Made by a program: the position numbers and the translations under genes. Positions 33,782 to 59,313 of a stretch of DNA of 64,000 nt are shown one piece after another (position 1 is the first letter of the stretch; each line of letters opens with the position of its first letter). Under the pieces are notes generated by a model. It had not been told where the DNA came from and ran no database searches. It was given only the letters and a program-made list of their open reading frames with translations. The stretch is from positions 3,861 to 67,860 of IMG/VR virus record IMGVR_UViG_3300047471_000541; one strand, 5' to 3'. Source of the DNA: a virus.

Positions 33782-35416
33782 TTAGGTGACTGTCGGGAAA
33801 CCGTCTGCCGGATACGCCGACTCGATCACAATGAAATTCGGGTACTTCCCGTCTGCTCGTTGTGTCGCACAACTGCCAAACACGGTTTCCACTCCGATAC
33901 CGTGATCCATTCCGTGGTTGCGATGTTCCTCGGTGCGCGCAGCGCGAGCGTTGCGTCCCTTGAGTGAACCGTAACCGCAGATACCAGCCATTTCTCCCAA
34001 CCCCAAGGTGTAGCAGAAGGGAACGCCGAAGGCGTTGACCTCCAACACCAGCGATCCGACAGGGTGCGAATCGGTGAGATTCGCCAATAGCCACGGAGCC
34101 ACGTTCCACGTAATTCCCGAACCGGGGAAGGTCGTGACCGCGATACCGCCAGCCGCAGCTCGGAGCCTGCTCGCCATCGTCAGCTTGTTGCCGTTATTCA
34201 CCGTGTAGGTGTAGAGGCCGATCTTGCCGGCGTTCGCGCCGGTCAGGTTGTAGATCGCCACATAACGAACTGTCGTCGTGTCAGCCGGGATTGTGTTGCC
34301 GTTCGTGTAAACGTAGGGCGCGTTCGAGAAGGACTCGAAGTAGTTGGGAGCTGGAACCAACGCCGCACCGGTAGCGTCGCCGCCGCCAGTAATATCGTAG
34401 GCGTTGTTATCAGCAGGGATCGCCGCGCCAAGGAAGGCTCGCGGTTGCAGGACTGAGCCGACCGGTCCGTAGGCTTCGTGGTCGCGGATGTACCACCGAT
34501 AGATGCCGTGGCCGTTCCAATCCACAAAGTCGCCACGGAAGATCGGGTTCCCTTTCCCGCGATTCTCCGCGTACTGGAGCGCCTGCAAGTAGGCTGACTC
34601 ACTCCCGAGAGGCGCGAAGGCGTACTGAGTTCCGAAGAATAGGAACTGCTCGACCATACCACCAGCGGAATTCTTGATTGTCCCTACAGGTTTGCCGCCC
34701 ATACCGGACAACACAAGGCCACCCTTGGTGATTGTGTTCGTGGAAAGTACGTCTGCACTTTTCAAGAGGTCGCGGCCACCTCTGAAGTTAGGCCGCACCA
34801 TGTTTAGCCCCGCTGTTCGAGCAGCGTTGACCAAGCTCATCATCAAGTCCTCGCTGATCTTTCGGCCCAGCCGCTGCCGAAGCAGTTTATTGGACAGATT
34901 ATCGAACTGAGAACCGATAACGGTTTCTTCCTCCGCGACGTCGGTGATACCGAGGCCGAACCATTGGCGCCCAATTTTGCAGGGGAAACCGCCGATACGC
35001 AGTTTTTCTTCGTTACCGCTTCGGTCGCCTTCACCTTGCGCGCCTGGACCGCCCAAGGGAGCGATGGTCGGAATGTTGATCGTGTTACCGTCAACTTTCG
35101 TCAGGTCATCGTACTGGACGAAAGGCTTTCCCGAACCGGGACCGCCGATCATTTCGTCACTGAACACGTTGGCCTGCTGTGCGCCCATTAGGATTCGCTT
35201 TACCCAAAGCTCCTCCGCCGCCTTGGCGTTTTGTGCGACCATGTTGCCATAGGTCGTCACGTTGATTTTGTTGTATGCCGCCCCGAGTTGGGCCGTCATT
35301 AACGGGTTTACTGCCGCCACCGCGAAAAATGCTGCGGCGCTTTGCGTCGCAAACAAGACCACGAGGGCAGTACCCAAGTGTAATCCGGCGATTAACCGGC
35401 GTTTAGTTAGATTCAT
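33782..35416 (-). CDS. major capsid protein, N4-gp56/DUF4043-like
   Basis: DLTKVDGNTINI...G..GEG...GNEEKL; A.NRG..NPIF.G...WNG; follows the scaffold gene; AGGAG RBS. Confidence 0.85.
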   Translation of the reverse strand: MNLTKRRLIAGLHLGTALVVLFATQSAAAFFAVAAVNPLMTAQLGAAYNKINVTTYGNMVAQNAKAAEELWVKRILMGAQQANVFSDEMIGGPGSGKPFVQYDDLTKVDGNTINIPTIAPLGGPGAQGEGDRSGNEEKLRIGGFPCKIGRQWFGLGITDVAEEETVIGSQFDNLSNKLLRQRLGRKISEDLMMSLVNAARTAGLNMVRPNFRGGRDLLKSADVLSTNTITKGGLVLSGMGGKPVGTIKNSAGGMVEQFLFFGTQYAFAPLGSESAYLQALQYAENRGKGNPIFRGDFVDWNGHGIYRWYIRDHEAYGPVGSVLQPRAFLGAAIPADNNAYDITGGGDATGAALVPAPNYFESFSNAPYVYTNGNTIPADTTTVRYVAIYNLTGANAGKIGLYTYTVNNGNKLTMASRLRAAAGGIAVTTFPGSGITWNVAPWLLANLTDSHPVGSLVLEVNAFGVPFCYTLGLGEMAGICGYGSLKGRNARAARTEEHRNHGMDHGIGVETVFGSCATQRADGKYPNFIVIESAYPADGFPTVT

Positions 35417-35472: not shown

Positions 35473-36594
35473 CTACCGAATAGCGGCAGCAAGCCCATCT
35501 TTCGCGCCGGCAAACTCATCCAGCTCGTCCAACGAGGCTTTTTCGCTGAGGTACTCATAGCTCTTTTTGTCGTCTTGAGCCTCTGCGGGTTTCCCCGGGA
35601 CGGCAGTTTTATTGCCGGATACCGGAGTGGCCTTCTTTTGAACGGGCGTTGGCGGAAGTGCTGGCTTGGATGGAGTTTTAGGCTTGGCAACGATCCCGAG
35701 TTCCTTGGCGACGATTTCCGTCACCCGCTCCGGAGCGGTGTCCGCATACAAAATGGGATGCTCAGGGTGACTCGGGTCTTTCATTTCCTCGAATCGTTTG
35801 GTGATCGCTTTCCCTAGCGGGGTATCAGCCTTGGCAGCGTCGGGATACTCAGCAAGTGCGCGAGTTTTTGACGCTTCGCGCGCTTGCTTCTGTTGCTCGA
35901 CAGCCGTCAACCGCTGGCCTTCGCGTTGGTACTGCAATCCCTCCAACCGAAGTTCCGTCTTGATAAGTTGGGAGCGCTTCTCGGCCAGAGCGACCGTCGC
36001 TGCGCGCATCTCCTTAGTGGACAGAATCTCGTCCGAGTCTTCGGGTGGATCGATCTGAGCTTCCAGAACAGCGATTTCGTTTTGCAACGATTCAAGCTCT
36101 CCGGTGACCGCCGCGACTGGATCGACCTGCGGACCTTCTGCGCGTGGCGCAGTTGGTTCGCCTCTTACCCGCCGCTCGGCTTCGCTCCAAGTGATCGGTG
36201 TTCCTGCAACATCGGCAGCTTTCTTGACCGCGGCGATTGCGCGATCGGTCGGATCCTTGAACCGGAAACGCTCAGGGATTTCTCCTCTTGGTTCCTCTGG
36301 CTCAGGAGCCGCTGTCGGCGGTTCGCCTTCCGCTGGCGGGGTTTCCTCTCCAGTAGGAGGAGGAGTTTCCGCAGGCGGTTCGGTTTCTGGTGCTGCTTCT
36401 GCTACAGGTGCCTCTGATTCGGCTCCTGTGCCTTCTCCACCGCCAGCTACTCCCGCGATCCTGGCTCCCTCGGTCTGAACTGCATCGAGGTCTTCCAGAC
36501 TCGCATTTTCAAGAGTCGGCTGTGGTGTACCCGCTTCCGTTTCGGATGCGGCCGTCGCTGGATTTGTCTCGGCTTGCGCCTGAGTTGGGTCCAT
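35473..36594 (-). CDS. capsid scaffolding protein
   Basis: Acidic Pro-rich N-terminus and coiled coil; directly upstream of the capsid gene. Confidence 0.7.
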   Translation of the reverse strand: MDPTQAQAETNPATAASETEAGTPQPTLENASLEDLDAVQTEGARIAGVAGGGEGTGAESEAPVAEAAPETEPPAETPPPTGEETPPAEGEPPTAAPEPEEPRGEIPERFRFKDPTDRAIAAVKKAADVAGTPITWSEAERRVRGEPTAPRAEGPQVDPVAAVTGELESLQNEIAVLEAQIDPPEDSDEILSTKEMRAATVALAEKRSQLIKTELRLEGLQYQREGQRLTAVEQQKQAREASKTRALAEYPDAAKADTPLGKAITKRFEEMKDPSHPEHPILYADTAPERVTEIVAKELGIVAKPKTPSKPALPPTPVQKKATPVSGNKTAVPGKPAEAQDDKKSYEYLSEKASLDELDEFAGAKDGLAAAIR

Positions 36595-38750: not shown

Positions 38751-38999
38751 CTAGAGTTTAAGGCCGTCGGCGGGCGGCTCAACAACGTTGCTGGCCGGAT
38801 CGTAGCTGTGCGGATAGGGAGTCGGGTTCCCGAGGCGTTTCAAGTCCATCCCCAGCCACATGATCGCTTCCTGCAATTTGGTGATCGTCAGAGCGCGCTC
38901 GCGGCTCGGGGTCAACTCCTTGAGTGTCTGCAACTGTTCGTCGAGATTTTTCCGGAGTTGCTTGTCGGCCTTGATGTTTTCGTCTTGTACTTCGGTCAT
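38751..38999 (-). CDS. Tad1/Acb2-like hairpin protein (candidate immune-signal sponge)
   Basis: SRERALTITKLQEAIMWL. Confidence 0.6.
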   Translation of the reverse strand: MTEVQDENIKADKQLRKNLDEQLQTLKELTPSRERALTITKLQEAIMWLGMDLKRLGNPTPYPHSYDPASNVVEPPADGLKL

Positions 39000-39430: not shown

Positions 39431-41977
39431 TCACTTCTTCTGACCGTTTGTCGAGCCTGCTTTCTTCGCCGCAGCCGCTTTCTGGCGAGCCGCTTCTTCC
39501 GCTTGCTTCATTCTCAGTGCGTGTTGCTCGGTCGATTGCTGTGTCGAAACCTGCGCCTGATGAGTTGCTACCTGCGTCTTGAGGTTCGCCTCCCGAACCG
39601 CCGTTTCTTGCTTGAGGCGCGAAGATTCAATCGCTGTCGAAGCCTTGAGGCGCGCGGCCTCAGTCTGTTGTCCCATCTTCTGCTCGTGGAGCTGCGCGCT
39701 TTGCTCCATCTTCTGTTGGTGCTCCTGCCCCTTCATCGCCATTTCCTGTTGGGGATCGCCTTGCCCTGCGGTTTTCTCCGCAGTTTTGACCTGTAGGTCT
39801 TGCTGGACTTTCTGAGCGACTTCTTGAGGACTCCCCGGCGAGATACCTTCCCGCTGCAAAACCTGCACCTGCTCGCTGCGGAGAAGATCGGGGTATTTGG
39901 TGGCGATGCTCGTGCGCGGCGGGAGCTTCGCGGCCTGTTGCTGCTCCTGTTTCCACTGTTCGACCTCCTGATCGCTGACTTTCCGCAGCAACCGGTCACT
40001 GTCCTGCACTTCCAGAGCGCGCAACTGGCGCACGTATTCTTCGCGGAGGAGGTTTTGTTCCTCTGGATTCAGCGCCTCGTAGTACTCACGGCAAAGCTGA
40101 ACAACCATGCGGGCAGTCTCAATCGTTTCCGTCGATCGGGAACGAGTAAGGAGAAGTCGAGTGTGCCGACCAAGATTGCGGATTTCTTCTCTCGAAAGAG
40201 TGAGGAGCGACTGCGTGTCCTCGTCGTACAAGACCTCATTTGGATCCATGTGTTCTAACACGCAATCCACGACCTGATCAAGCACCTGAGTTACGCCGTC
40301 GCCTTGCGCGGCCTCGGTTTCTTTCATCAGGACGTTGGCAGTTCGCTCGAGCGATTTGATGCCGGTGGCGAGCTTGGTCGTATCCAGGCCAGCCATGTTG
40401 CCATCGTCGGGGCCGACCATCCCAACCTCGGTGGACGCGGCTTGAAGCATCAGCTCGATTAGCTTCATCGCGTTCTCGTCAATGTCCGTGAGTTGGACTT
40501 GGAAAAGTGGCGGGTTGGACGCGGTGAAACGCGGGTCGTCAACGTCGAGCACCTGATCGTCGCCGAACACCAACTCCTGACCGGCCTTCCATTGGCTCAC
40601 GGCGTTCCGGTTGCGGAAGCGCACGCTCGAATTCTTTGAGCTCTTGAAGTTGACGCGGTTAAACTGCGTGTCGATGTAGAGCTGCTTGTGGTCGAGCATT
40701 TCAAATACACCCGTTCCATACCAGCGATCGGGGACCTGCTCGATGCCGACGATAACGTCAAAGGGCCGCTTTTTGAGGTGAGCGCCCATGTAGTCATACC
40801 AGATCGCTTTCTTGTTCTTGCGGTCGATGACAACCCAAACTTCCTCCTCGATGCCGTCGTCGTCGACGTCCATTCTCATGTAGCAATCCGCTGCGTTCAC
40901 GATTTTGAGCGCCTGACTGCCAGCCTCTACTTCGCCGGTCACTTCCTGCTTTGATTCCTTCGCCGCCTTCGCACCGCTAAGGTAAGGCTGGTTCACGTAG
41001 TCTTTGCTGACCTCGAACATTCCGTAGATCATCACCAGTCGTTCCCACTGTTCATCGAAAAGATGAACGCAAATGTCGGCCTCGTGGATCGAAGCGACGT
41101 TGAGCGGGCAAAGAAAATCACGGAAGTCCACTGGTCGCAGATCAACGCCTTCCTGATGGGTTAACACCTGATCGAGCATCGGGAAATCTTCGTACTCGGG
41201 CGTAAAGCGCATCGCCACGTTGGGCTCTTTGCGGAGGCGGAACTGACCTTGCACGTTGGGATCGGGGATGAAGTCGTCCTGCTCGTAGATGTAGTTGCCG
41301 CGCGGCGTCATTACCGGTTCGCCTTCCGGAGTAAACACTTGGCCTCCCGGTCCCTCGTAAACGAAGGGACCAGCGGCCACGCGGGCTGGGCCACGGAACT
41401 TACTGGTGTTGGCGACGTAGGTAATCTTCATCACCTGTTCGTTGCGGATCAGCGCGCATTTAAGCCCAGTCGCCAGCGAGCGTTTCACGTTGCTCTGGCG
41501 CACCTTCATTTGCAGGAACTTCTCGGCGCTCATGCTCACCTGGGTATCCTCCACGCTCACGGCCTCCGGCATGATCGCGAAGAAAGGGTCAGTTCCACAC
41601 AAGTCATCACGCGACTTGGCCGACATGAGGCGCGCGTAACGCTTGGAAATGTTGATCGAGAAGTTGGAGAACTCGAAGATGCCGCCTAGCGCCAACCGCC
41701 ATTGCCAGTCGTTGTCATACTGGTCTTGGTTCTTCTGACGGACACCCATCCACCGCGTCGGATCAACCCGACCTGTGCCGTCAAGGTAGAGTCCCATTTG
41801 TGAGGACAACTCGTCGATCCGCAAGATCGCCCGCTCAACCATCGCGTCCACCTGTGAAGGCGTGAGAACGAGGTTGGATTTGATCGGCTGGATTCCGTCA
41901 AGCGGGTTAATCTCCGGCGCTTGATCGTTCGGTTCCACCGCTGCCGGCGCTGTCGTGTTAGGGCTTGGGGTCGTCAT
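39431..41977 (-). CDS. portal protein (P22/podovirus-like) with Gln-rich tail
   Basis: Size, RPF...VPDRWYG.G...Q...D..FN, TKLATGI, C-terminal coiled coil. Confidence 0.8.
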   Translation of the reverse strand: MTTPSPNTTAPAAVEPNDQAPEINPLDGIQPIKSNLVLTPSQVDAMVERAILRIDELSSQMGLYLDGTGRVDPTRWMGVRQKNQDQYDNDWQWRLALGGIFEFSNFSINISKRYARLMSAKSRDDLCGTDPFFAIMPEAVSVEDTQVSMSAEKFLQMKVRQSNVKRSLATGLKCALIRNEQVMKITYVANTSKFRGPARVAAGPFVYEGPGGQVFTPEGEPVMTPRGNYIYEQDDFIPDPNVQGQFRLRKEPNVAMRFTPEYEDFPMLDQVLTHQEGVDLRPVDFRDFLCPLNVASIHEADICVHLFDEQWERLVMIYGMFEVSKDYVNQPYLSGAKAAKESKQEVTGEVEAGSQALKIVNAADCYMRMDVDDDGIEEEVWVVIDRKNKKAIWYDYMGAHLKKRPFDVIVGIEQVPDRWYGTGVFEMLDHKQLYIDTQFNRVNFKSSKNSSVRFRNRNAVSQWKAGQELVFGDDQVLDVDDPRFTASNPPLFQVQLTDIDENAMKLIELMLQAASTEVGMVGPDDGNMAGLDTTKLATGIKSLERTANVLMKETEAAQGDGVTQVLDQVVDCVLEHMDPNEVLYDEDTQSLLTLSREEIRNLGRHTRLLLTRSRSTETIETARMVVQLCREYYEALNPEEQNLLREEYVRQLRALEVQDSDRLLRKVSDQEVEQWKQEQQQAAKLPPRTSIATKYPDLLRSEQVQVLQREGISPGSPQEVAQKVQQDLQVKTAEKTAGQGDPQQEMAMKGQEHQQKMEQSAQLHEQKMGQQTEAARLKASTAIESSRLKQETAVREANLKTQVATHQAQVSTQQSTEQHALRMKQAEEAARQKAAAAKKAGSTNGQKK

Positions 41978-44900
41978 TTAGAATCCTGTGAACATCGTTC
42001 TGCCACCACCTCGGCGGTAGCTCCCTGCACGCTTGCGTTCCAAAATGGAAGTCATTTGTTCGCGCTCCCGTGGTTCGGCCAAGGCATACACCTTCTCGGC
42101 TTCGGCCAGTGGCAACCGGTCAACCGCGCTGGCGATGGGACCGAGCCGCGCCCGCTTGTAGAGCTGGGAAATGTCACGTGGATGGATCACACCGGTATTG
42201 ATCGCCTTGGTAATGTCCGGAGCTTCACCACGACGAAGTTTCGACACGAGGTCGCGTTTACCCTTCTGAATCTCGAACTGCTCAGGAGTAATGCCTTCCT
42301 GCGGGTTGTGCGTCTTGTAGTAAGCGTCCAGTTCGGCCTGCGCTGGCGTCTGCGTAAGCGCGCGCGGAGCTGGCATGACGCCGACAAGGGGCAGCACCTT
42401 CTCCGGAAAGCCTTTTCCGCGCTCCTTGGCGCGCTGGGAGCCGCGCCACCAGAAGGGCTGGAACGCCGAAATGATATGTTTACCGCTCTGGTAGGCTTGC
42501 TTGATCACGCTGGCGTCGGGATCGCGCACTTGAACGCCGTAATAATCGCGGTTCTTGATGATTTCCCCAAAGAGCGAAATGGCGGGGTGCGTCTTATTCA
42601 TGATCGTTTCGCCCGGGTGTTTCCCGTAGGCGTACAAATCCTTCATGTAAGTCGGCAGCACGAAACGCTCGGGGTTGCCATGTTCGTCCTCGCGCCCTGT
42701 CCGGAACGCCCAGTAATCCTGCCCCTCCGGTTTCTTGCCAGAAAAGAGGTAGGTCAACGCCGCGTTCATGACGGCGGTCATCAGCACGAGGGAAATCGCG
42801 TAGGCGGTGCGCGGAGGCAGGTCTTTAGGCAGGCTACCGGTGTCGTGCCATTCCTTGAAGAAGTTACCGGCGTCTTTAACAGCGCCGCCGAGCTGTAGGA
42901 TCGTGCCGCCAGTCCAGCCAGGAGCGCGCACGAACATCTGCAGAACGTTTTTCGCAACGTTATTTCCAAACAGCCGCTTGTACTGAACCTGCCCCAGCCG
43001 CGCGTCGATGGTCGTCCAGAGCATCGAAAATTGCGGAGCCAGTTCTTCGAGAGTTTTGCCGGGGTTCATGTCGATAATGCGCCACGCTTCGTGCGCGAAA
43101 ACGCCCAGCTTCTGGCGCGGCACGAGGAAATCCATGATCGGTTTCGCCATGAGTTCGATAAGCGCCACAGGCGAACGCACCGCCGCCCGAATCTTCCGCC
43201 CGCTGTAGAAATCCTTGTAGGCCGCGTCGATCTGGTCGGTGCGAAGTCCCTTCTCGATGGATACTCCGGCGCCGGCCAACTCCGCAGCGCGCACGACCTG
43301 ATTGATACGCGGGTCCTGTGAGGGAGTTTTGCTGACATAAGCGTTGAGAACCGCGTCGCCAGCTTTCGGCACCGAATACATCGCGGTAGGCTGTTCTTTC
43401 AAGACGCTACCTAGATCGCCCATCGTGCGATTGCCGCGCATCACTCCATAGACTTCCTGTAACAAGCGCGCGAGGCCGCTGATCTGAGCTTCCATCGAAG
43501 TGAAACCAGCGTGGAACGCGCTCCCGATCCCGAGCTGCGTCTGGTTGAGCAGGTTGGCGAAGGCCATCCACGCGCCAAAGGGTTTGCCGAAGTAACGGCT
43601 CTCGTAAAGCGAGTCCGAAAGGTAGTTCTCGATAATGTCGGCGTATTCGTTAGGCACGATCCGTTTGCCGACCAGATTCAGACCGTAATCCGCACTTTTC
43701 GCCCACACCTTCCCGAAGGGATCAGGGAATTCCCGCCAGCCGTCCGGTGGCTTGGCCGTCGGCGGGATGATCTTCATGTTACCTTCCTCAGTCCACCGCT
43801 GGATAATCTTGTTCGCCATGATCGACTGATCCAGTTCGTGGAGCTTCGCCATGATCGCATCGGCGGGGTTGGGCATCGTCGGCTCGAGTCCGAACTTCTC
43901 GGCAGTCAACTTGTCAGTGAACACCATTTCGTGACGAAACTTCTCCGGCCCTTTAAGCGGGTGCTTCGCAAACGCGCTCATCCAGCCCTGATCACTGCCC
44001 TTATCGGAATTCTGTGCGATTAACTCCTTAACGCGCGCACGAATCTCGGCCATTTTCGCTTCCGAGGTGTTATTGGCGTCGAACTTCTCCTTTTCCTTGT
44101 CGGTCAGGATTTCGTCGATCGCTTGATTGAAAGCGCGTCGGCTTTGGACGGTCCAGTAACCGGGGAAATAATGTTGCTTTACCGAACTCAGTGGCGCGTC
44201 GGCACGCTCGGCCTGCCTGATCCGGTCGTCGAGCAGCTCCTTGTAGAGCTTTGCGGCCGCATCGAGTTCAGGCGGATACAAAATGTCGAGAGCCTGATCG
44301 GGCGTCATCTTGTTGACTTCTTCCTGTGTGTGACCGCGAGCCAAGAGAGCGGCCTCCAACTTCCGTCCGGCTGGCGTCACCATTGAAGGAATTGTGCCTC
44401 TCGGGCGCACCGGTTTCCCCGTGGACATGGCGTGAGCGAACTCGGTGCCTGGGTGATACTCATAGGGAATGTCCGTCCGGTCGGCCCCCATCTTCACAAA
44501 CATTCTCCACGAACCGCCCTTTGCTGGGAACGAGGGCTGAATTTTACGCTTGGCGATTTCGGCTTGCCTGTTTCGTTCGCCCAAAAACTCGCGCACATCG
44601 TTCGCGGCCTGTAGGTGCATACCGCCCTTGGAAGTCGGCGCCAGTCCAGCAACGTCCGAGAGCGCGCCTTTCGCCCAATCCAAGCCGGAACCTTTCGACA
44701 CCGTAGCGAACACGCCGCGAAGTTTTTTGCGTTGCGCGGGCGAAAGCATCCCGAGCGTGAACTCGTTGGGGATCCCAATTCGCGAGGGATCATTCGGATC
44801 CTCCGTTCTTACCACATGCTCAATCGCTTCTCGCGTAAGGTCACGCCCGTAACGCAACTCGGCCAGCTTCATGCTGTATTTGTCCATCGCGTGAAGCAGA

Positions 44901-47900
44901 GCGTTATCATCGCCGAAAGCGGCTTCGTGTTCGAGATACTCAGGCAACCGGCCTTCCTTGATCGCCTTTGCTATTGCCGCAACGGGAGCGGGACCACCGA
45001 ACGTGAAAGACTCAGCGAGTGCTTTGATTTCTTTCGGGTTTTCCGGTGTCCATTTGTCATGGAAAACTTCGGCAAAGAGTTCGGTGTAGTCAGCCTTGTC
45101 GAGCTTCAAGTCAGCTCGCTTCTCTGTGATCGGTCGGCTTTGCCCAACGCGCGCACGATGCCACGTCGCGTCAATAGAGAGCTGGGTGCGCGGCGATACC
45201 AGTTTCAATGCACGGAGGTATTTGTCGTTGGGTTTGGTTTCACCCAACCCCAGCAGATGAACCGAGGTTGGCTGGCTCTGCTTAAAGAACCGCAGAACGT
45301 CTTGCTTGGGGGTGGCGTCCATGTTCGAGGGTATGCCAATCGCGATGTTCGGCCCGAACTTCTCTTTGTAGTGGGCATACTGCTCGCTAAGGGAAAGTTT
45401 GCCGTTCTGAGCTGGCAGGATCGCGCGCGCACCCGAAGCGATGAATTTCTTTATCTCCGCTTGGTAATGATCGAGTAGTTTTAGGGTTGTATCCTGTTCG
45501 CCTAAAACGTCGGGCATCACCAAGCTCAGATTGCCGGCAGAATTCCCGCTTTGCTCAACGAGGCTCGAGTACTTCTCGAACACCTTGTCGAAATCGACCG
45601 TCCCGCCGCGCCGCTTCACGCCAAACGCACCGGAATCGACAAACACCTTACCACCGGCCTGCGCGTAATCGGCGAGCTTGGTGATGTGCCGCGGCTGCGC
45701 TGACTGAATGTCGACGCCGATATTGCTCTTGGTGTTGCGGTAGGCGTCAATGATCGAATCGGTGTTCGCCCCGCTCTTGAAAGCCGTTACCGGCGTCTTG
45801 GGCGCTTGCATGTAAAGAAACTCAAGGCGTGAACCGTGAACAGGGTTCCTGACGTACACCGTGTTCCCCACACTGATCGCTTCATCTGCACGAACCACCG
45901 GTTCGTCGTTGGTCTTGTCGTAAAAGTAGCTGTGCTCCAGCGGATCGAAGCCTAGCGGTGTCCACTTGCTCAGATCGTTAATGTCAGAGGGCAGCGCGCG
46001 GTCAGGGTTATACTTGCCTTCCGCTGCGGCGATTGGTGCCTTGCTGATGAGTTGATCCCTGATCTTCGCGGAAGTTCCCTCGCGAACTGTAAAGCTAACG
46101 GGACCGTCCAGGCGAACAATCGAATCATATCCGATGTTTTTCCCCAGTTTGGGGGCGTGAACGGTTTGAGCGTATGTCCCTGAACGTAAAAATGAGGGAA
46201 TGTCGATTCGGACACTGACAGGAGTGCCTTTCGGTAAAGTCCGGTTAGCACCAACCAAAGGCGCTTTGTTACTCGTCAGCGCAGCGGCCAGCTTCTCATC
46301 CGAAACCGGCTGTGGCTGCTTGAAACTAGGGTCATACCTCAGCGGTACGCCGCCACCGCGTCCAGTGGCGATTTCGCCTTGGCCTTTTTGGGTTTCACCT
46401 TGGCGGGCAATTTCCCCGGGTTGTCGAAGTGATGCTCCCTCGCCCACTTCTCCCCCTTCACCCCGAACGCCCACTCCCTCTGCGCTTGTGATTTCGCTGG
46501 CATATTTTTTTTTCCCTCTCGGTTGCTGCATTCCCATCGTTTCCGGTGGCGCTTCCTCGCCTTCTGGTGGCGTATAGGGATGCCAAACGGACCTGCTGCC
46601 TTGACCTGCTCCTGCCAAAAGCGTCCTCCTCAGTTCGCCTATCACTTCGTCGTAAGGCGCTTTTCGCAAAGAGCCGGTTCGCTGATACAACGTCCACATA
46701 TTTTGCCCCGGAACGCCGATCGTACGTTGGTAAAGCGCATAACCGCCGCCCTTCCGAGGGAGAATGTAAAAATGATGCTTAACGTTTCCGCCCTTCTCCG
46801 TTTCGGTCGCTATCGGGCGATCCTGCCCGGGTGTGATCGCGCCTCCCATCGACTTCGGGAGCTTCTGGCCAGTAAGCGCGAGCTGGCCCGCGTACGGCGC
46901 GATTGCCTCGGTGCCGGAAGGTAGCGGTCGAGCGCGCGGAGTAACATACTCCTGCACAGTGGAAAACTTCGCCGCGCCCTGAGCTGGCGGCTTTAACACC
47001 TGTGGCCGGATTCCTGCCAGTGAATTGTAGATCGACGCCTTGTGCCGGAGCCAGAGTTCCGTTTCGCGTCGGCTCAAACCCTTTGGCGGATTGGTGCTGA
47101 GGAGAAGCGAGGAGCGATCGGGATAAGAATAGTCGATGTGCTTCGCTTCCTTTTTCAGATCCAAACCCTTCTCGTAAATCGCGAGCAACCCTGACTCTCG
47201 GGTTATGTCTTTCCTACGCCGCATCATTTCAAAGTTTCGCTTGTACTGGGCGATCACTCGGTCGTGCAGCCGCGCCAGAATTTCCCCAGGCACCCGCTTA
47301 TCGTAGAGGTATTGGGCGAAGCTCTCGGCGAAAAACTCATAGACGTTATTGGAGTAATAGCGCGACTTGGAGGTTGAAGCCTGCGGGGTTCCTTGAACGA
47401 AATAAGCCTGTGTTCCGCTGCGGCCACCGAGCTTGGCGTACAGACGCGCCACGGCCCTGCGCTCAGGCACGGTCAGTAACACAAAATAAGCAACGTGACC
47501 GAACTCGTGCAGGAACACTTTTCCCTTGTCGTTGGAGAGGATCGCATTGTGGCGCGCCTTCTTTTTACCTCGCTGCAACGTGAGGCTTCCCCGCCCGCCG
47601 TAGGTTCCGCCACCTGTCCCCAACGCCTTCATTCTCGGGTTGCTGGCGAAATCGATCCGCTGCAAGAACTCGCCCTTCATTTGCGCAGCCAACGCCCGTA
47701 TCATTTCAGCGTGCGTAGGGAAAATCGTGTTTTCCTTAACGAACTGTTCAAGCTCGTGCTGCAAATAAGCGTGACCGGGACTCAAAGCTGAGAACTTCGC
47801 TGGGTCGTCCACCAGCTCCATGATTTCGTCCTCGCTCATCTGGTTCGCGTTGTTGCGCTGCCGGTCGGTTTCGTCCTGAATGTCCTTGAAGAACTTGTCA

Positions 47901-50900
47901 GCCTTGTCCTGCGCGTCTTTCCTGACCGCTTCGTTAGGTGATTGCAGTCGCTCGCGCGCTTCCTGCTCGCTGATGTATCCCGGCTCACCGGTTCGCATCT
48001 GGCGCATGATCCTCTGGAACTGTGGCTCGCGCTTGAACACGGTCATTACCGCCACCGCATCGTCGTTGAGTTTGATTTCCGCGGTGCGCTGCGACAGCGG
48101 TTTTAAGTTCTTCAAATCGCCGCTCACCATGGCCGAGAGCGTGACCAGTTTGTGAGCGAAAATATCGATGTTCCACGTATCAACCGGATGGTCGACGAAC
48201 AGGAACTCCACATGCGCTTTGGATTTCGTGGTCAGGCGGTTGACGCGCCCGATGTTCTGAATCCCCTCGATTGCGCTCAGGGGCGCGGTCACGATGATCA
48301 GGTCGCGAGGAACGCCTCCGTGAATGTCGTCCAGATTGATGCCGGTTCCCGCACTGTTAGGCGTCCCGAGCATAACCTTGATTTCGTTGCGCTGAAAACG
48401 GTCAATGTCGCGCAGGGAACGCTTGTTATCGCCGCCGTACACCCTGCCGATGGTGTTTTTCCCGTAAATTTTCTCCAGAGAGGCGTGAATCTTATCCAGC
48501 GTCCCCTCAATTCCCTGCTGGTAGCTCCCCGCCGTCCCTTCTTTGATTCGGGAAGCGAACACGATGACCTGGTTCCCTTTCTTGGTCGATTCTTGGACCT
48601 TTTTGATTACGGCTGGAATCTTCTGATTTTCCAGATACGCGCGCACCGTCATTCCAGCAACGCCACCCGCGTTCTGCGCGCTCTTTACCTTCACTCCCTC
48701 GTAAATCCGGCGATACATGGCGTCGGCGTGAATGAAAGCCTCGTCACTGATAGGAACTTCGACGAAGTTCACCTCCACGTTGTCCATCGGGACGTTGCGG
48801 CTAATCATCTTCCCGTTGCGCGTTAGCTCGTCAAAGATCGCCTCCTTAACCCGCTCAATGTCCTGCGCCGTGATGTTGTCGGGGTACTTGAAGCGAATGT
48901 CGACCTCGCCCGTTTCGGGGTTCACACTCCGCTTCCATGTGATGCCGAGACTCCCGTAAACCTCTTGAACCGCGGCGTCGCCAACCAGAGGAGCCAGATA
49001 AACAATCTGCTCGGGCTTATCGAAGGGCGTAGCCGTCGCGTACATTACGTGCTGCGCCACCGAAGAAAGATCGCTGCCGGCCAACGCCTGAGCTGTCTCG
49101 TATCCGGCGTTGCGTAACCCCTGCGCCTCATCAAAAATGATCGTTCGGAACGTCCCCTTCTTCACCAAGCCCGAACGCACATCGTTGTAGGTCGCCAGAT
49201 ACACGCGATCCGGCTTCACTTCGTCGCCCCTGTAACGCCACGCATCGATTCCCAGCATTTCAGCGTCTTTAGCGAAAGCGTTGTGAACAATCCGCTCGTT
49301 CTCGGTCACGATCAGTGTAGCGTGAACCATGCCTTGCTTGAGCGGCCTTCTCTTGGGCGAAAGACCGTTTTCTTTGCTGTAGTTGTTTTTTTCGGGATCG
49401 TACGGGAGCGCCTTGGTATTCGCCATCACTTGACCGACCGCGAGCTGCTGGACGGTCTTGCCGGCGCCGGGGCCGTCGTTGTTCAAAAACCCTGTGCCAC
49501 CGTCAAAAGCCCACAGCGCGAGGTTAGCTCCCCATTGTTGGTGGGGCTTCATGATTTTCTTAAAACGCTCCGGCAAAAACTGAACCCTGCTCTTTTGAGT
49601 CATCCCACTCCGGTTCATCACCAAGGAAACCGGCTTACTTTTTTCGCCAGTTGGTTTCTCGACCTTCTCGCCAGTGAACAGTTCACCCTGATCCTTGGAC
49701 TCTTTAGCCTTGGGTCCCTCTAGCTTGTAGCTCTCACGACGATTGGGGCGGTTCTTGTTATCCGCTTTCCACATCGCCAGATGGGTTTCAGCGGCCTTCT
49801 TCGCGTCGTTGAAAGTGGATTGCTCGCCTATAGCGTCAGCCCCACCGCCTTCGGGGTTGAAAAAGTGGATCGCAAACACCGACGGCTGCACCTCGGAAAT
49901 CGAGTAGGAAACACCGGTAGATTTCGAGAGTCCGTCCCAATGTCGGATAACGTGTTCGCCTTCCCCGGGCGGTTCCTCGCCTTCCTCGGGTTCCTGTATT
50001 GCGCCTTCTTTCCAGACAATCTCCGGAAGGTTATCCATCCCTGGCAGCGAATCGGTTTGCTTCGCGCCCTTCACCGGCTTCGCCATGAACAATACTTCCG
50101 GCGAGTACTTGGGATAAAGCCGAGTCGCAGATAAAACGGCGTCAATCCGTGAATCATGTTCGTCGTGACCGCTCGGCGTCCAATCCCCCGGCTGCATCTT
50201 CATCACCATTTGGTCGGTGAGTTGCGGCACCATCGGCCTGTGGAACGTAGTCGTGCGCCATTGACCGGCCTTGGTCGGTCGAATCAAAGCCCCAGGCACT
50301 TTGGATTCCAACGCCGTTTCGGTACGCGGCACAACCGGCGTTACGACAGAAACATTGTTCGGGCGCTCTGGATTAGTGAAAACGATCGGAGCGTTCTCGG
50401 GGATCTGGCTCGCCCAGTTTTTGAGTTGGTCCCAGTACTGATCGCGTTTCTGGATATGCTCGGAAAACGGTTCACCTGTAACAGTCGGCGGGTACTTCGG
50501 TGGCTGAGGAACCGCCATCAGCTTCGGCTTCTGCATGAACAGCGTCTGCTGACCACTCTTGTCTATACCAGGAGCCAGAATATCCAACTCGCTCTGACCG
50601 CCCAAGACAGCGCGCTTGGGTTCTGGCGGCTTCTCGTCCAGCGGAAACTCGTCCTCCGACTCCTGCAATTTGCGCGGAGTCTTGTTCGGATCGATGAGCA
50701 ACTTTTGCCCCAGCTTCTTCTCGTACTTAAGCCGCAGATCGTGTTCTGCCGGCGTCAACTTTTTACCCGAGTCCTCTTTCTTTTTGAGCGCCTGCAACAC
50801 CCGCTCCTCTGCCGTCATGCCGCCGAATTTTCCCGGCTGCATCATCGAAAGGGTTTTCAAGTTCTTGTCGCGGATCAACCCTTCGCCAAGATCAATGTTC

Positions 50901-53900
50901 TGAGACATTAAATCCTCGGCACCTTTTTCCAGAGGGAAGTAGTCGTTGACCGCCTTCTGGAACGCCTTTTTCGCCTGCGGCGTTTCAAAACTGTGGAACC
51001 ACTCGAAGATCGCCTCAATGTCGAGGTAACGACGATCAAACAAATTCTGCTCCAAGTCCTGCAAATACTGGATCGGCTTTATCCCCAGCTTCGCCCGTTC
51101 CTGCTCCATTTTGAGCATCGCCGTGAACTTGGTCATGTCCTGCCCGCGCCGCTTCATGGTCATCAGCGACGCAAGCCCGTTGATCATTTTATTCAGAGCT
51201 TTGGTCTTGTTGACCAGTTGGAGGGTTTCAACGTCGTCGATGATGTGACCGACCAGTACCAGCCGCGCGAATTTCGCACCCTGCTCGGTGAACCCGCCGT
51301 TGTCAGCGATAAATTTCGACCGATCGGTTTCACGCAACGCACCGTCCTTGAACATCGCGTTGACCAAATCTTCCGCCGCGGCCTCTTTCAATGCGGTCAA
51401 CGGCGGCTTGTTCAAATCCCTCTCGAACAAGTGACCGGCTGTATCGAGGGTTTCAGGAGTCAACTGGCGCGCGGCGCTGATCGCTTCAAATTCCTCGATC
51501 TTGGGCTGCTCCAAGGTCGTATTGAGAACGCGCCCGATTGCTGCTTCCTGTTCGGGTTCCAGAATGTCGTCGACAACGGCCATGAGGTAAGGCCAGCCGC
51601 CTGCGTCCTGCATATCCTTGACGAACTGTTTGTTTATTCCGAACGCCTCGATCCGCTTTGGAAGCTCCTCCTCGTATTTCGCCCTCTCGATCAGATCGCG
51701 ATAATGGCGGCGATGCCCGCCCAGCTTCATATACCGGCCTTCAACAAAAACAGCTACGCCGGGACCCTGTAAAAAACTCGGGTCTTTCGTGAAAGGAAAA
51801 CGCCTGTCATACCCCGGCTTATTGTCGGTTCGCTCTCCTGTCGTCTGTAGCAGGTAATCCTGAGTCTCCTTGAAGCTGGCGTCTGGTTGCTCGTTCTCAG
51901 GATTATCAACAACCATGCGGCTATCGACCAGCATGTAGGTGACCGCGATCTGGTCACCGTTAGGCATCTGAATGTACTCGTGGCCCAAGTCACCCGATCC
52001 CTCGTGCGATGGGATAACTTCGGCTTGGCTAATGTCAGTGTCCGAAATCGGGCCAGGACCACCAATCTCTTTGGGAACAGTAGGCGGTCTGCGAGGAACC
52101 TTGGACACTATCTGCGGCTTTGGCGCTATGACCACAGGCTTAGGATCGTTTTCCTGTTCCTTGGCGAGCTCGACCGCTTCGCGGAACGCATCCAGACTCA
52201 ACTCGTGGTCGGTTCCTGTCGTATGAACGTAATCCGGTGGCGCGGTATCTACTGCGGCCACCGCTTCCTCCACGGTGTCGTAACCGTCGAGCGCATCCTC
52301 TAGCACCGCTTGTTGCGCTTCGGAATCTGATAGATCCTCCTTTTTGGCGTGAAACTGGTAAAGCTCGTTGAGATCATCGCTCCGGAACGGCAGTTCAGTG
52401 TCCTGCTTGGTCAGGTCGTCCATCGCGCGCAGGCGCGCCTCGATCCACGGCGTTTCCGGCTCCTGTAAGAACGGGAGCAGTTTCGCCCACGCTTCGGGTT
52501 CAAAGTCAGCTTCCTCGGGAATGATGCCGTGAGCCAACTGGAACCTCATCCGTTGAAACTCAGCCGCCATTACTATATCCCTGAAATGTTTGGGACCGGT
52601 CCAGTTATAGACCTCTGGCATCAACGCCTTGATGCGCGGATTGAGTTCCTTCCAGACGCGCTCACGATCCTTGTCGACGTTAGCGCCCGAAATGATGATT
52701 TCTCGAATGTGGCCGGCTTCGCCAGCCATTCCACGCTCGAACGCGCTCAGAGCTATCGCCCTAGCTTCCTCTGGCGTTTTCCCGAGCGTGATTTGGTTTT
52801 CGGTTGCTATGTCAAGCGTGTCCGCTACAACCTCGGGAGCATAAACAATGTCGAGCGCGCCAGTTGATTTAGTGAAACGCGCCCCAATGCCACCACCGGG
52901 AATTTTGTCGGGCGCGACGCGAGTTAGCGGAACGCTTTGGCCGGAGAGTTTACTGACGCGGATGCCGCGTGGGAGGGCGTCGTGGTACTCTTGGACAATC
53001 TTCTCGGCCTCTGCATGGCGGTGTAACGCATTATCTGGTTCTGCCGGTCCACCCACTCCGGGTTCGCCTTCGCCTGTCGTTGGAGGCGTTTCAGTAGGAG
53101 GTAGTGTTTCCGGCCCAGTGCCACGAGAAGGAGGTTGCGCCCCTTTTTCCAATTCCGCAATCTTATTGTTCGCACCCTCCTTGGAACTGAAATAACCGTG
53201 ATTAACGCCGGTGGAGTCGTGCACCTCGAAGCCGTCCTGAGCTGGGACGACGCTGTATGTCACTTTGGCCGGAGCTTCTGGCGGCTTAGGGCCAACCGTA
53301 GGATCAAACTTTACGTGATAACCCGCTGGTTTTCCGTCGATGGTGACCGGCTCAACCCATGTTCCAGGTCGCTCGGCGGCGAACTCGTCAGCTTCCGCTT
53401 TTGTGCGGAACGGTTTGGTCAGCCAATTTTCACCTTTGCGCGGTGCTGGCTTTCCCTTGGGCTTCTCCGGTGGCGCACCATGCTTCTCTGCCGCCTTTTG
53501 GAACTCCGCTTTAGCCGCCTGATAAGCGTCCCACGCTGCGACTCGCTTGGGATCAGTGGACAGTAGATGCGCCAGCGCCTTGTAAGCGTTGAAAGCGTCG
53601 GTCTGCTTCTGGTAAAGCTCCTGCGGCGTCGCTACTTTGGGCGCTTCCTCTGCCGGCGCTTCGGCCTTGGGTTTCCCGTAGACAACGGATCCCTTTTTAA
53701 CGATTTTCCAGCCGTCGCCAGAGCGTTGCACTTCTGCCGGTGTGACCGACGTAATGTCTTTCGAGTGCAGGATCGCTGGATCGCCAGTGTTGTTGGTGAC
53801 GTCTAAGAGCGCGTCCAGATCAACTTTTCTCGAGTTTTCCCCGCTCAGAGCGTGCGGCACCGCGTAGTGTTTGCCTCCGACGCTGAGAACTTTCGCTCTT

Positions 53901-56900
53901 GCGGTGTCGAGAAAAGTGGGAGCGGCTTTGTCTTTTAGCTCGGGCGAGTGGGAAGAACGATCCCAGTACACCGTGTCGCCCTTGTCCAGAATTTCCGTGT
54001 GCGCTGGCGCTTCGCCTTTGGCTTCTGCCGGTGGAGTCGGCTCCGGCACCTCCGCTGTCGGTGGCCGCTCGACCGGAGCTGGCTCAGGTGCTCCCGCTCT
54101 CTCGACTGCGATTTTTCCTCGGCCTATATTGAAATTAATGTCAGCCGTAGGTAGAACAGTCTGTTCACCGTTCTCCGGATTGGTCAAAACTGTGTGACCA
54201 CCGTCAACTCCGTCAACACGCCAGCGACCAGCCCATTTCCCCTTGTCGATGGTAATGTGATCGCCAACGGCGTGAGTGTCTACGGCTGGAACGGCTGGAG
54301 GTTGGGCGGTTTCTTGCCCGGGTTGCGCCTCGGGAGCGGGAACCGGCGCTTGTCCACCTGGGGCGACGGTTGCGCCTGGGGCGGTGGTTGTGCCGCCGCC
54401 AGCGCCTCCAACGGGTTGTCCGGTTGTCCCTGCTCCTGCGGTTGTGGTTGGCCCTGCTGTGACAACTGGGGCGGGGGTAATTCCGCCTCCGGCTCCGGCA
54501 TCGGCATCGACCGGCTGAGTGATCGTGCGTGGAGTACTTTCTGGTTTACCGGTAGGTTGTGTTTGCTGAACTGGCCCTTGCCCTTGCCCTGCCCCTTGCT
54601 GCTCACTTGGTACATTGGTTGGTTCTCCTGCGCCGATGGTTGGTGTGACCGGTGTAGCCGGTCCTTTCTCGACTGGTGGCGCTTCCCCGCCGCGAATATC
54701 TACTGTCGTGTTCTTGATTGGCTGACCGCCCTGCAAAGCCTGTCGCGCGCTCACTTCGACCGTATTTGGATCCATCGGGAGCTGGCCGGTTCTTTGCAAT
54801 TCCAGCATCCGACGACCGAAGCCTTCATAAACTTCGACTTCCTTGGGAGTAAGCGGCTTTCGCATCGAAGCCAGCCTTGACGCACCGTCAGGATCGTTAC
54901 CGAAGGAAGCCGCCATTTGCGCTTCCATCTGCGGCGTCAGGTTTTCGTTGAGGCCGATACCGTTATCCATGCGCGCCTTGCCGCGCATCACAATGTCGCC
55001 AACCTGCGTCTTGTTGTAGCCTTCAAACTCGAGTCCGTGACCGGCTGCGAACGCACCGAGCAAAGCGGCCGCGCCAGCGTTTTGCCACGTTTCGCCCTGC
55101 GGCTGCAAACCCGCCGCGTGCATCCCTTCGTTGATAATTGTGTCAACGGCGACGTTGGTCGCTGCCGCCAGACCGACTTTGCCAATAATAGCTTTGGCTA
55201 CTGCCGCCCTCACCGCGCCGGGATCAGCGTCACTCGCGGAAGCCGCTGTGCGAATCGCGGCGTCCTCTTTCAAGTTCTGGACGGTGTTCCACAAACCGCC
55301 GCCGCTTCCGTAGTAACTCCGCGCAATCCCGTTGGCGTACCGCGCGGCTACGGACGCGGGGTCTTGCGCCGCCATAGTTTTCGACGCCCACGCTTGGTCA
55401 GCCGCAGACACAGGATCACCAGCGGCTGCGGCTTTATTGATTGCCTGCGCTCTGCGGAAGTTGTTACTGATTGCTTCGGCGGTTGTTCCTTCTGCCGCCG
55501 ACGCGCCAGCGAGCTTCCCGCCTATCGCTTCCACGCCACCGCTAATCGCCTTGGACGCGCCCTTGGTGAACGCGCCCGCGCCGAAACTAATCAGGTTGCC
55601 CGCCAGATCGTAGTTGGGATGCAGATCGCTTGAGGCCGAGAGCGAATGGATCGTGTCGTTGTAATCTCCGAGCTTCCTAATGAGCGCGCCTGCCGTGTGC
55701 TGCGCGATCCCGCCGCTGATCAATCCACCGACCGTTGCGCCAATAGGAATTGTCGCCCAATCGAGCGGTCCGCCTAAAGCGCCAATTTCCCCGCCGATAC
55801 CAGCACCCACAGGAAATCCAGCCGCAAACGCGCTCCCTTTGACCGCACCATTCAACATCGCCTTGAGCTCAGGATTATCGCCCGCCGCGGCGATCAGTTT
55901 GTTCCGATCGTCCGTCGCCTTTTGTATGGCATCCAGTTGAGGTTTGACTTGCGCGTACCTATCGGGATCGATCACTCCATCTTTCGCGGCCTGCGCCATA
56001 CTGCCCGCAATGTCTTTGGGGTTGAAGTGAACATTGTCCTGCGAATCCACCGCGTAAGGCTTACCGGAAGGGAAGACGTCAGGTGTCCCCATCTTGTCAT
56101 GGTTGGCTTCGGCGAAAGCATTGGCTGACTCCGGCCCCACGAACGTTCCAAGGTTCTTTCCGGTCTGCTTGTACTGCGCGACCGCCTCGTCGTGCGACAT
56201 TTCGTGGCCGTCATCGGCAATCGTCGGGATCAACACTTCGCCTTTGTCGGTTCCAACCGAAATCGATTTGACGGTACTAGTCGTGCCGTCGGCGTTCGGG
56301 ACGCGCGGGCGCGTGTTGTAGTCGATGTTCCCCGGCGCCGTCATGCCTGCCGCTTGCTGCGGCCCGTAGTTAGGTTGAATTCGAGCCGCTTCTATCGCCT
56401 GTTGCTGCGGCGTCACCTGCGGTTGGTCTGGTTGTCCAGTTGAACTTGTCCGAGGCGGCTGATCCAGAGGACCTGGCTGACCTTGTTGGTGAGCCATTAA
56501 CGTGTCGAGAGCCGCGCGCTCCTGATCGCGACCAGCCTGCACGCGGTCGCTCAAATCGCCCAGTTTGTCTTTCAGATCGTACAGACCGTTAGCCGTGTCG
56601 ATCGCGTCGGCCTTGCGCTGATCAATGTGCGCGCGAAGTTGTGTCGCTGCAGGAGATAGGTCCTTGGAGAACCATCCGTTAGTCTCGTTCGCCTGCGGCT
56701 GCGCGTATTCACTGTCGAAATGGGTATTGATCGCTTTAAGGATCGTGTCGCGGTCAGCGCCTTCGAGTCGCGGGTCTTGGAGAGCTGGCACGCTCGCCGT
56801 TAACTCCTTCATCATCTGTTTGTGCTCGGCTGTGCCAGCGACCAGATCGGCTTGATCCAACGTCAATTTTTTGCCAATCAACTGCGAAGTTTTCGCTATC

Positions 56901-59275: not shown

Positions 59276-59313
59276 AAGCCGCCCTCTGCCCATAGAGGGC
59301 GGCTCTTGCAAGC
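59276..59313 (-). promoter_or_regulatory. conserved promoter motif overlapped by an 11-bp inverted repeat
   Basis: GCTTGC-N19-CAGAGG; AGCCGCCCTCT-N6-AGAGGGCGGCT. Confidence 0.55.

Follow-up and report, generated by a model that had tools for sequence, protein, structure and literature searches.

We analyzed a 64,000-nucleotide (nt) stretch of DNA (the window), which comprises bases 3861-67860 of the complete 67,860-bp virus record IMGVR_UViG_3300047471_000541 of IMG/VR, a record with direct terminal repeats. A giant open reading frame (ORF), P0001, was called on the minus strand (41978..57712); it makes up 23% of the phage genome and encodes a phage polyvalent protein of 5,244 amino acids (aa). 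The protein bears six copies of a short peptide, [TVF]-[LM]-x-M-x-x-P, at the borders of its modules, and related giant proteins bear different peptides at the same positions, which suggests a lineage-specific junction code and raises the question of whether the chain is cut there.

The P0001 gene starts 3 nt after a 531-aa gene (57716-59311), and the portal gene (39431..41977, minus strand; phrog_1216) begins immediately downstream of the P0001 stop codon. An Amidase_3 lysin gene and then the major capsid gene follow beyond the portal. Because of these neighbors, we placed the giant gene in the head module.

Pfam and PHROGs profiles gave few matches on P0001 itself, namely a sub-threshold Sno helicase, the phrog_62 helicase and the phrog_887 TGT. 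A DdrB-like ParB domain (~aa 1914-2050) sits within a conserved block (aa 1864-2280; 50873..52123, on the minus strand like all P0001 features below) and was recognized by transitive homology to P0153 and P0029: aa 1914-2228 of P0001 align to aa 1637-1952 of P0153, in which PF18763 covers aa 1641-1774. It is followed by module M1 (aa 2294-2389; 50546..50833), drawn from alignments and AlphaFold; a Sno/SNF2-type helicase block (~aa 2700-3200; 48113..49615); a zincin domain (aa 3290-3545; 47078..47845) with HEFGH at aa 3402-3406 (47495-47509); the beta-rich module X (aa 3793-3964; 45821..46336); a TGT-like (beta/alpha) barrel module (aa 3972-4220; 45053..45799), which like module X was defined by homology and AlphaFold; and a 919-aa C-terminal module (aa 4326-5244; 41981..44737). 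The last ~400 aa of the C-terminal module resemble the C-terminus of the giant polyvalent protein P0010, and BLAST of this module against the relatives P0003 and P0016 gave no significant match.

Six related peptides in the giant protein

An initial annotation of the window had listed six peptides, each followed by basic residues, at apparent borders of ParB-like, helicase, zincin and TGT-like domains, and had read them as a cleavage code or module joint. The peptides and the HEFGH, at the coordinates given there, and the three named neighboring domains were all recovered. The pattern [LM].M..P has exactly six matches in the P0001 product, with the L/M residue at aa 2288, 2391, 2541, 3726, 3966 and 4320, and a K or R stands within four residues past the motif Pro in every copy. 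The copies span aa 2288-4325, and the first 2,286 aa contain none. Motif 1 (TLSMMQP, aa 2287-2293; 50834..50854) separates the ParB-containing block from a conserved helical hairpin, and motif 2 (TLFMQKP, aa 2390-2396; 50525..50545) ends the block of homology to P0003. Motif 3 (VLFMAKP, aa 2540-2546; 50075..50095) follows a 143-aa P0001-unique module, ~55 aa ahead of the helicase-leading block. Motif 4 (TMGMQQP, aa 3725-3731; 46520..46540) is found ~150 aa past the helicase-zincin block and ahead of a Gly/Glu-rich linker, motif 5 (FLYMQAP, aa 3965-3971; 45800..45820) exactly where module X gives way to the TGT-like barrel, and motif 6 (TLGMLSP, aa 4319-4325; 44738..44758), the weakest member, ahead of the C-terminal module.

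In 20,000 shuffles of P0001, L.M..P was expected 0.58 times and observed five times (P=3.5e-4), and [LM].M..P was expected 0.76 times and observed six times (P=1.5e-4). With the preceding T/V/F included, the six observed copies compare with 0.11 expected, a count reached in 0 of 20,000 shuffles. Motif 6 ranked 12 of 5,233 in a leave-one-out test with a position-specific scoring matrix; this test is circular, as the sites were picked by the pattern, and was not used as evidence. Across the six-frame open stretches of at least 100 aa in the window, [LM].M..P occurs eight times: six times in the giant ORF, once in the frame of the capsid gene and once in an off-frame 139-aa stretch. The capsid-gene match (GLNMVRPNF; 34790-34807, minus strand), at ~aa 204 inside the phrog_334 match, is the only other one in a real gene and is probably due to chance.

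Leu and Pro are encoded by differing synonymous codons in the six copies, which have no long stretch of DNA identity in common. The different codons indicate that selection acts on the peptide. A DNA-level repeat in the window was rejected on the same ground.

Lineage-specific peptides in related giant proteins

Relatives were sought with aa 2540-3735 by HMMER, which gave 912 matches at E<=0.001, the best 150 being listed, and by a word-index search. The helicase is common to many giant proteins; among the best 150 of the 912 matches, the helicase and the zincin occur together only in P0003 (4,301 aa), P0016 (4,297 aa) and P0017 (5,300 aa). Exact [LM].M..P was found in 13 other giant proteins at 0-2 copies each, and in the closest homologue, P0003, at none. 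The zero count in P0003 looked like a refutation, but the alignment then gave a different peptide at the same columns. Thus, the exact peptide proposed at the outset is not conserved in P0003, whereas lineage variants of it occupy the same positions.

Each of the three relatives has its own recurrent form. In P0003, seven copies of AGNP are present where 0.09 would be expected; six of them read [TRM]-L-x-AGNPA, and no pattern as extreme was seen in 60 shuffles. P0016 contains AGETP four times, three of them in the L-x-AGETP form, and L-x-A-G-[ER]-T-P four times including LFAGRTP, which shuffles reach in 1 of 60. In P0017, L..SKPE is found four times and L-x-[AS]-S-[KR]-P-E six times (shuffles reach this in 0 of 60), together with the variants LFAGKPE and LLASNPK.

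The alignments pair these forms with the P0001 motifs one by one. At motif 1, BLAST sets KTLSMMQPGK against QRLYAGNPAK (P0003 aa 1429), and the P0017 counterpart is PLPASKP (aa 2038). At motif 2, QQTLFMQKP is set against QRTLFAGNP (P0003 aa 1533, BLAST), with QDTLFAGRTP in P0016 and QMSLFAGKPE in P0017 as equivalents. MAFFT pairs motif 3 with a degenerate PLFAGKV in P0003, and motif 5 (FLYMQAPK) corresponds to ALFASKPE in P0017 (aa 4138), where a module of 37% identity ends. The positions of the peptide are kept across proteins that are only 26-44% identical, and all copies within one lineage change together. The motif Met is replaced by Ala or Ser in P0003, P0016 and P0017, and internal translation starts at this residue were rejected on that ground.

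On these sequence comparisons, we regard the [LM]xMxxP peptide as the form taken in the P0001 lineage by a junction peptide that occurs throughout the family and differs between lineages. The core of this peptide is Leu, any residue, a small residue or Met, and Pro 3-4 residues on.

Recurrent peptides were also noted in further giant proteins (P0010, P0094, P0089, P0091, P0006 and P0162-P0165). They comprise EPxFxRR (four copies), FRL..P (four, of which three are FRLM[LI]P and one lies at residue 2), D.F.DLP (four, of which three are DIFADLP), KKLxKP (four), FMPE[RQD] (three to five) and YMP[AS]TA (two). The multiple-testing calibration of recurrent peptides covers four proteins only. The C-terminal residues of P0001 (...GGGRTMFTGF; 41981-42010, minus strand) resemble the front half of the junction peptide, as in GGQRTLFAG of P0003, a likeness that may be due to chance; aromatic-rich tails are also present at the C-termini of P0001 relatives.

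A tblastn search with aa 2200-4400 for relatives among cultured phages returned three weak records only, and the portal had no match among 50,697 deposited phage records. Scans of IMG/VR, of metagenome contigs with an alignment, and of GTDB genomes gave no relatives; one metagenome scan with a degenerate zincin pattern led to the sequence L002, described below. The phage belongs to an isolated lineage known only from metagenomes.

Position of the peptides at module borders

All six motif sites lie outside the homology blocks or at block ends, in keeping with the domain borders proposed in the initial annotation. P0001 aa 1864-2396 match P0003 aa 1009-1538; the match stops at the Pro of motif 2 and resumes at aa 2628. 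None of the retrieved proteins contains a homologue of the module that separates motifs 2 and 3. Between motifs 1 and 2, M1 contains a helical hairpin (aa 2301-2338; K-L-T-P-x-E-x-D ... L-G-Q) that is kept in all four family proteins and has block means of 79-82 in the predicted local distance difference test (pLDDT). A second M1-like unit was seen in P0017 (aa 3838-3925), flanked by two other motif copies, and a short M1-like unit in P0003 (aa 1540-1575) ends in a degenerate PLFAGK.

Module X is also present in seven giant proteins, namely P0162 (74% identity), P0163, P0164, P0165, P0166, P0006 and P0017, and in six of the seven its alignment ends at aa 3962-3975. In five lineages the module terminates in the lineage's own peptide (FRYMPSTAP, FAFMPERP, AAYMPKPP, ALFASKPE and FLYMQAPK), and in P0162, P0164 and P0006 the same peptide also stands ahead of it. 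TGT-like homologues begin to align at aa 3971-3978 in five of six cases, including two stand-alone proteins of ~500 aa. In a relative, a HATPase_c domain starts ~33 residues past a motif copy.

An AlphaFold2 model of aa 3790-4340 (seven sequences; mean pLDDT 63) is consistent with a border between module X and the TGT-like barrel. Means over 10-residue blocks were 62-91 in module X (aa 3798-3965) and 55-91 in the alpha/beta barrel (aa 3984-4155), and the sole low-pLDDT stretch between the two, aa 3966-3983, consists of motif 5 and 12 further residues. Foldseek with this model returned generic TIM-barrel matches only (target TM 0.17-0.51). The model of aa 2230-2720 (four sequences; mean pLDDT 38.6) puts motif 1 between two helical elements and is otherwise uninformative on motifs 1-3, which all fall in stretches of low pLDDT in this generally poor model. 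Compared with random positions, the motif flanks of the four family proteins are enriched in disorder-promoting residues (P=0.05, 0.002, 0.02 and 0.08).

The annotation had also suggested looking in homologues for modules gained or lost at the motif, and L002 provides such a case. Its open frame shares 80-92% identity with P0016 and has an extra 122-aa unit, ...TLNAGETPEAP-[112 aa]-TLNSGETPEAP..., where P0016 has a single motif copy. The two bounding copies are identical at 30 of 33 nt, and the other copies in the L002 gene differ at synonymous sites. L002 shows that a joint can act as a recombination point. The inserted cassette was also delimited as a 110-aa module (aa 2501-2610 of the frame-1 translation). 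Together, the alignments, the cassette indel and the AlphaFold model around motif 5 give good support to the reading of the motif as a module joint.

The zincin and other protease candidates

The intact zincin that the initial annotation had placed within the giant protein is conserved in all four family members. Its core, VF[LF]HE[FLY]GH, is invariant together with NVYEFFA ~55 aa downstream, whose Glu is presumably a metal ligand. The profile PF07737 (ATLF; window 47297-47533) scored 15.4 bits, below the cut-off of 27.4 (E=5e-4 for the genome); the named clusters nearest to the zincin in the ESM Atlas are ATLF as well, at 0.95, which is a lead only. No zincin homologues of 449-2000 aa were found.

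A GEAGH at aa 1664-1668 (52709..52723), which had been taken for a degenerate zincin, was rejected as such: it aligns with EEHAH in P0003, where no HExxH is conserved. A second HExxH is HEMSH at aa 503-507 (56192-56206, minus strand). The N-terminal block around it (aa 451-539) shares 51-52% identity with the N-terminal regions of the giant proteins P0089 and P0013.

At E<=1, no PF04586 (S78/U35), PF01343 (S49), PF00574 (ClpP), PF03420 (S77) or PF00717 (S24) was found in the complete genome; the controls matched, PF03420 weakly. Ten small ORFs near the head genes likewise had no Pfam peptidase match. Because these five families were not found, the in-built zincin is the only recognized peptidase and the only candidate reader of the peptides. 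A prohead-protease maturation system was rejected, since none of the prohead protease families sought was found in the complete genome.

Features of a polyvalent protein

We class P0001, from its predicted domains, among the phage polyvalent proteins as defined by Iyer et al. (2017), since it is phage-encoded and combines several unrelated effector-type domains in one very large chain. P0001 itself has no match to the polyvalent-signature Pfam families (LPD families, ddrB-ParB, DarA, ART-PolyVal) at E<=0.1, and the LPD38 profile did not find it, nor did this profile find its own control. Its homologues do carry signature domains: LPD38 in P0016, DarA_C in P0003, and LPD38 with ddrB-ParB in P0004.

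P0001 contains no Cys in 5,244 aa, compared with 96 Cys in 8,336 aa (1.15%) for 16 other ORFs of the phage. Cys is also absent from P0003, P0162 and P0006 and occurs once or twice in P0016, P0017 and P0010. Within the window, the adjacent 531-aa ORF and a 373-aa ORF (35473-36594) lack Cys as well. A Cys-free P0001 would fit a protein that travels unfolded, and this feature and the adjacent portal gene suggest that P0001 may be packaged in the particle and injected with the DNA.

The gap between the portal and lysin genes contains an 82-aa ORF (38751-38999, minus strand) that matches the Acb2/Tad1 hairpin of Pfam, PF24729, above cut-off (E=6.3e-7). It is a candidate signal-sponge anti-defence protein.

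Discussion

From the comparisons above, we propose a putative mechanism for the use of the junction peptides. P0001 is a chain of cassettes, in which the ParB-side, helicase-zincin, module X and TGT-like units lie between the 2,286-aa N-terminal part and the 919-aa C-terminal part, and predicted flexible linkers, each with T-L-x-M-x-x-P and then a basic residue, join them. The peptides would be the recognition sites of one protease, most likely the conserved in-chain HEFGH gluzincin. This protease would cut a scissile bond at the joints, either in the capsid or after ejection, and the helicase-zincin unit and the small effector modules would then act as separate proteins, as in the cutting of RNA-virus polyproteins. 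A single reader is suggested because one consensus, lineage-specific and kept in position, stands at the joints, a pattern best known from viral proteases and the sites in their polyproteins. The term cleavage code, as used in the initial annotation, fits this polyprotein-like covariation, in that the same consensus appears at several junctions and is replaced by lineage variants at kept positions (motifs 1, 2 and 5). We favor self-processing at the joints, with even odds for cleavage, and regard the assignment of the in-built zincin as the reader of the motif as tentative and less likely than not.

Several observations weigh against this proposal. For P0001 alone, 50% of 300 shuffles gave some a.b..c pattern at least as extreme as L.M..P, so that the count fails multiple testing. 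The motif is also not the top de novo pattern of P0001. The P0001-internal statistics alone are weak, and it is the comparison with relatives that carries the case beyond chance. The model of aa 2230-2720 is too poor to place motifs 1-3, and structural support is absent for motifs 4 and 6. With hmmscan (E<=0.1), no Pfam family reached threshold on the zincin, and a PDB sequence search with it gave only a chance match (E=1.3). Moreover, the zincin core is near-identical in P0001 and P0003 despite their M-x-x-P and A-G-N-P-A motifs, which does not favor the zincin as the specificity reader. A second module X clade has [FY]-M-P peptides beside a different type of zincin, and the peptide is therefore not tied to one zincin family. 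Finally, polyvalent proteins of the N4 virion RNA polymerase type have been reported to be packaged uncut (Iyer et al., 2017, PMC5512222).

Among the alternatives, the one that survives best, and that we still consider unlikely, is that the peptides remain uncut and serve as linker docking motifs that bind one partner multivalently, for example the portal, the capsid interior, a packaging or ejection chaperone, or a host factor like the sliding clamp. If one partner read many sites, lineage covariation and placement in disordered linkers would likewise be expected. All four proteins have Q-x-[TS]-L-F at the motif-2 site, similar to the sliding-clamp-binding consensus QL[SD]LF; however, the Q-x-x-L-F form is found at one of the six P0001 sites (aa 2388, QQTLF), and the clamp motif does not hold across them. 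A conserved host partner would leave the lineage-specific tails AGNPA, ASKPE and MxxP unexplained, and a docking motif need not mark every cassette border nor travel with inserted cassettes. The delivery of some polyvalent proteins uncut (PMC5512222) would agree with docking.

Somewhat less probable again is that the peptides are cut by a host protease or an unrecognized phage protease, and that the zincin is an effector on host proteins, a role that Iyer et al. (PMC5512222) also allow for metallopeptidase (MPTase) domains. The small variation of the zincin core across lineages with differing motifs, and the related [FY]-M-P junctions of the clade with the other zincin type, both speak for this reading. 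The order of L-x-[A/S/M], then G/S, then Pro recalls serine-protease sites, such as V-A-A↓G-E-P of LexA/S24, (V/L)-x-A↓S of assemblin and A-x-A of signal peptidase. A host protease would have to coevolve with the motif of each phage lineage, and a phage-encoded one finds no counterpart among the S78, S49, ClpP, S24 and S77 families in the 67.9-kb genome or, by Pfam peptidase matches, in the small ORFs near the head genes.

That the peptides are functionless scars of cassette shuffling, kept as coding microhomology for recombination, appears quite improbable. The near-identity of the bounding copies in L002, set against the synonymous variation of its other copies, fits recombination between copies, but the codon differences in the window and the co-changing of lineage copies at positions kept at 26-44% identity require selection on the peptide. 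That the pattern arose by chance and was picked out post hoc from a very long chain rich in linkers, a view for which the shuffles and the circular leave-one-out test could be cited, is highly implausible against three of six sites that align exactly with independently significant homologue motifs and against block boundaries and a cassette indel that coincide with the sites.

Self-processing at the joints can be compared with several known systems. Eukaryotic RNA-virus polyproteins are cut by an embedded protease at a virus-specific consensus. P0001 is alike in that a short consensus stands at its junctions and varies between lineages at equivalent sites, with a protease in the chain; it differs in that it comes from a double-stranded DNA (dsDNA) phage and has a zincin instead of a Cys/Ser protease, and its cleavage is putative. 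In T4, phiKZ and SPN3US, prohead proteases trim head-internal and ejection proteins at L/I-x-E or S/A/G-x-E motifs. This trimming likewise uses a short phage-specific motif on head-packed, ejected proteins, and the P0001 gene lies in a head module; in contrast, no prohead protease family was found in the P0001 phage, and its motif has another form and occurs in one giant chain, the further match in the capsid protein being probably fortuitous.

The processing of polyvalent proteins by an embedded zincin was predicted by Iyer, Burroughs, Anand, de Souza and Aravind (2017, PMC5512222), who also drew the analogy to RNA-virus polyproteins. Their proteins resemble P0001 as giant multi-domain chains with a DdrB-like ParB, a Sno/SNF2 helicase, a zincin-like MPTase and effector-type domains. 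A cleavage or junction motif is unnamed in the searched passages of that paper, whereas P0001 has a concrete lineage-specific joint peptide and its family a cassette indel. Within the library searched, no description of a junction motif of polyvalent proteins was found; the supplements of PMC5512222 may bear on this point. The DdrB/DarB anti-restriction head proteins of phage P1 combine a ParB-type domain with a C-terminal MPTase and are proteolysed before packaging (PMC5512222). By description, they are alike in these two domains; they are far smaller than P0001, and that text describes no repeated junction peptide in them. The gp47 protein of phi24B, a 2,811-aa LPD5/LPD1/LPD38 protein with a MuF-C metallopeptidase, was detected by virion proteomics and proposed as an ejection protein (bioRxiv preprint 10.64898/2026.04.10.717836). 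It is likened to P0001 by description and not by sequence, both being giant polyvalent proteins with a metallopeptidase; phi24B is a short-tailed phage, and the passages of that preprint consulted here give no junction motif or processing for gp47. What is new here would be a junction code that is concrete and open to testing, in a lineage of polyvalent proteins not described otherwise, the zincin processing itself having been predicted already (PMC5512222).

The cutting of phage polyvalent proteins by their own zincins into separate effectors has been predicted since 2017 and awaits demonstration, and the joint peptide offers exact residues to mutate and fragment masses to seek. MxxP, AGNPA, AGETP and ASKPE form a natural covariation series for protease specificity. 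Were the peptide a cutting code, it would explain how a phage that devotes 23% of its genome to a single gene can still deploy independent enzymes, would account for the exchange of cassettes, and would provide a small protease of defined sequence specificity together with its site. If it is a docking tag, it would be a handle that organizes a 570-kDa cargo in the capsid. More speculatively, and as a possibility that we hold with reserve, the giant polyvalent proteins of dsDNA phages may be true polyproteins with a programmable address code, in which zincin and junction peptide coevolve in each lineage, peptide-flanked cassettes swap by recombination at the joint and the same protease frees them after delivery; [FY]-M-P, EPxFxRR and other peptides of unrelated giant proteins would then be parallel codes. 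If so, these proteins would constitute a plug-and-play system of effector delivery, analogous to the polyproteins of RNA viruses.

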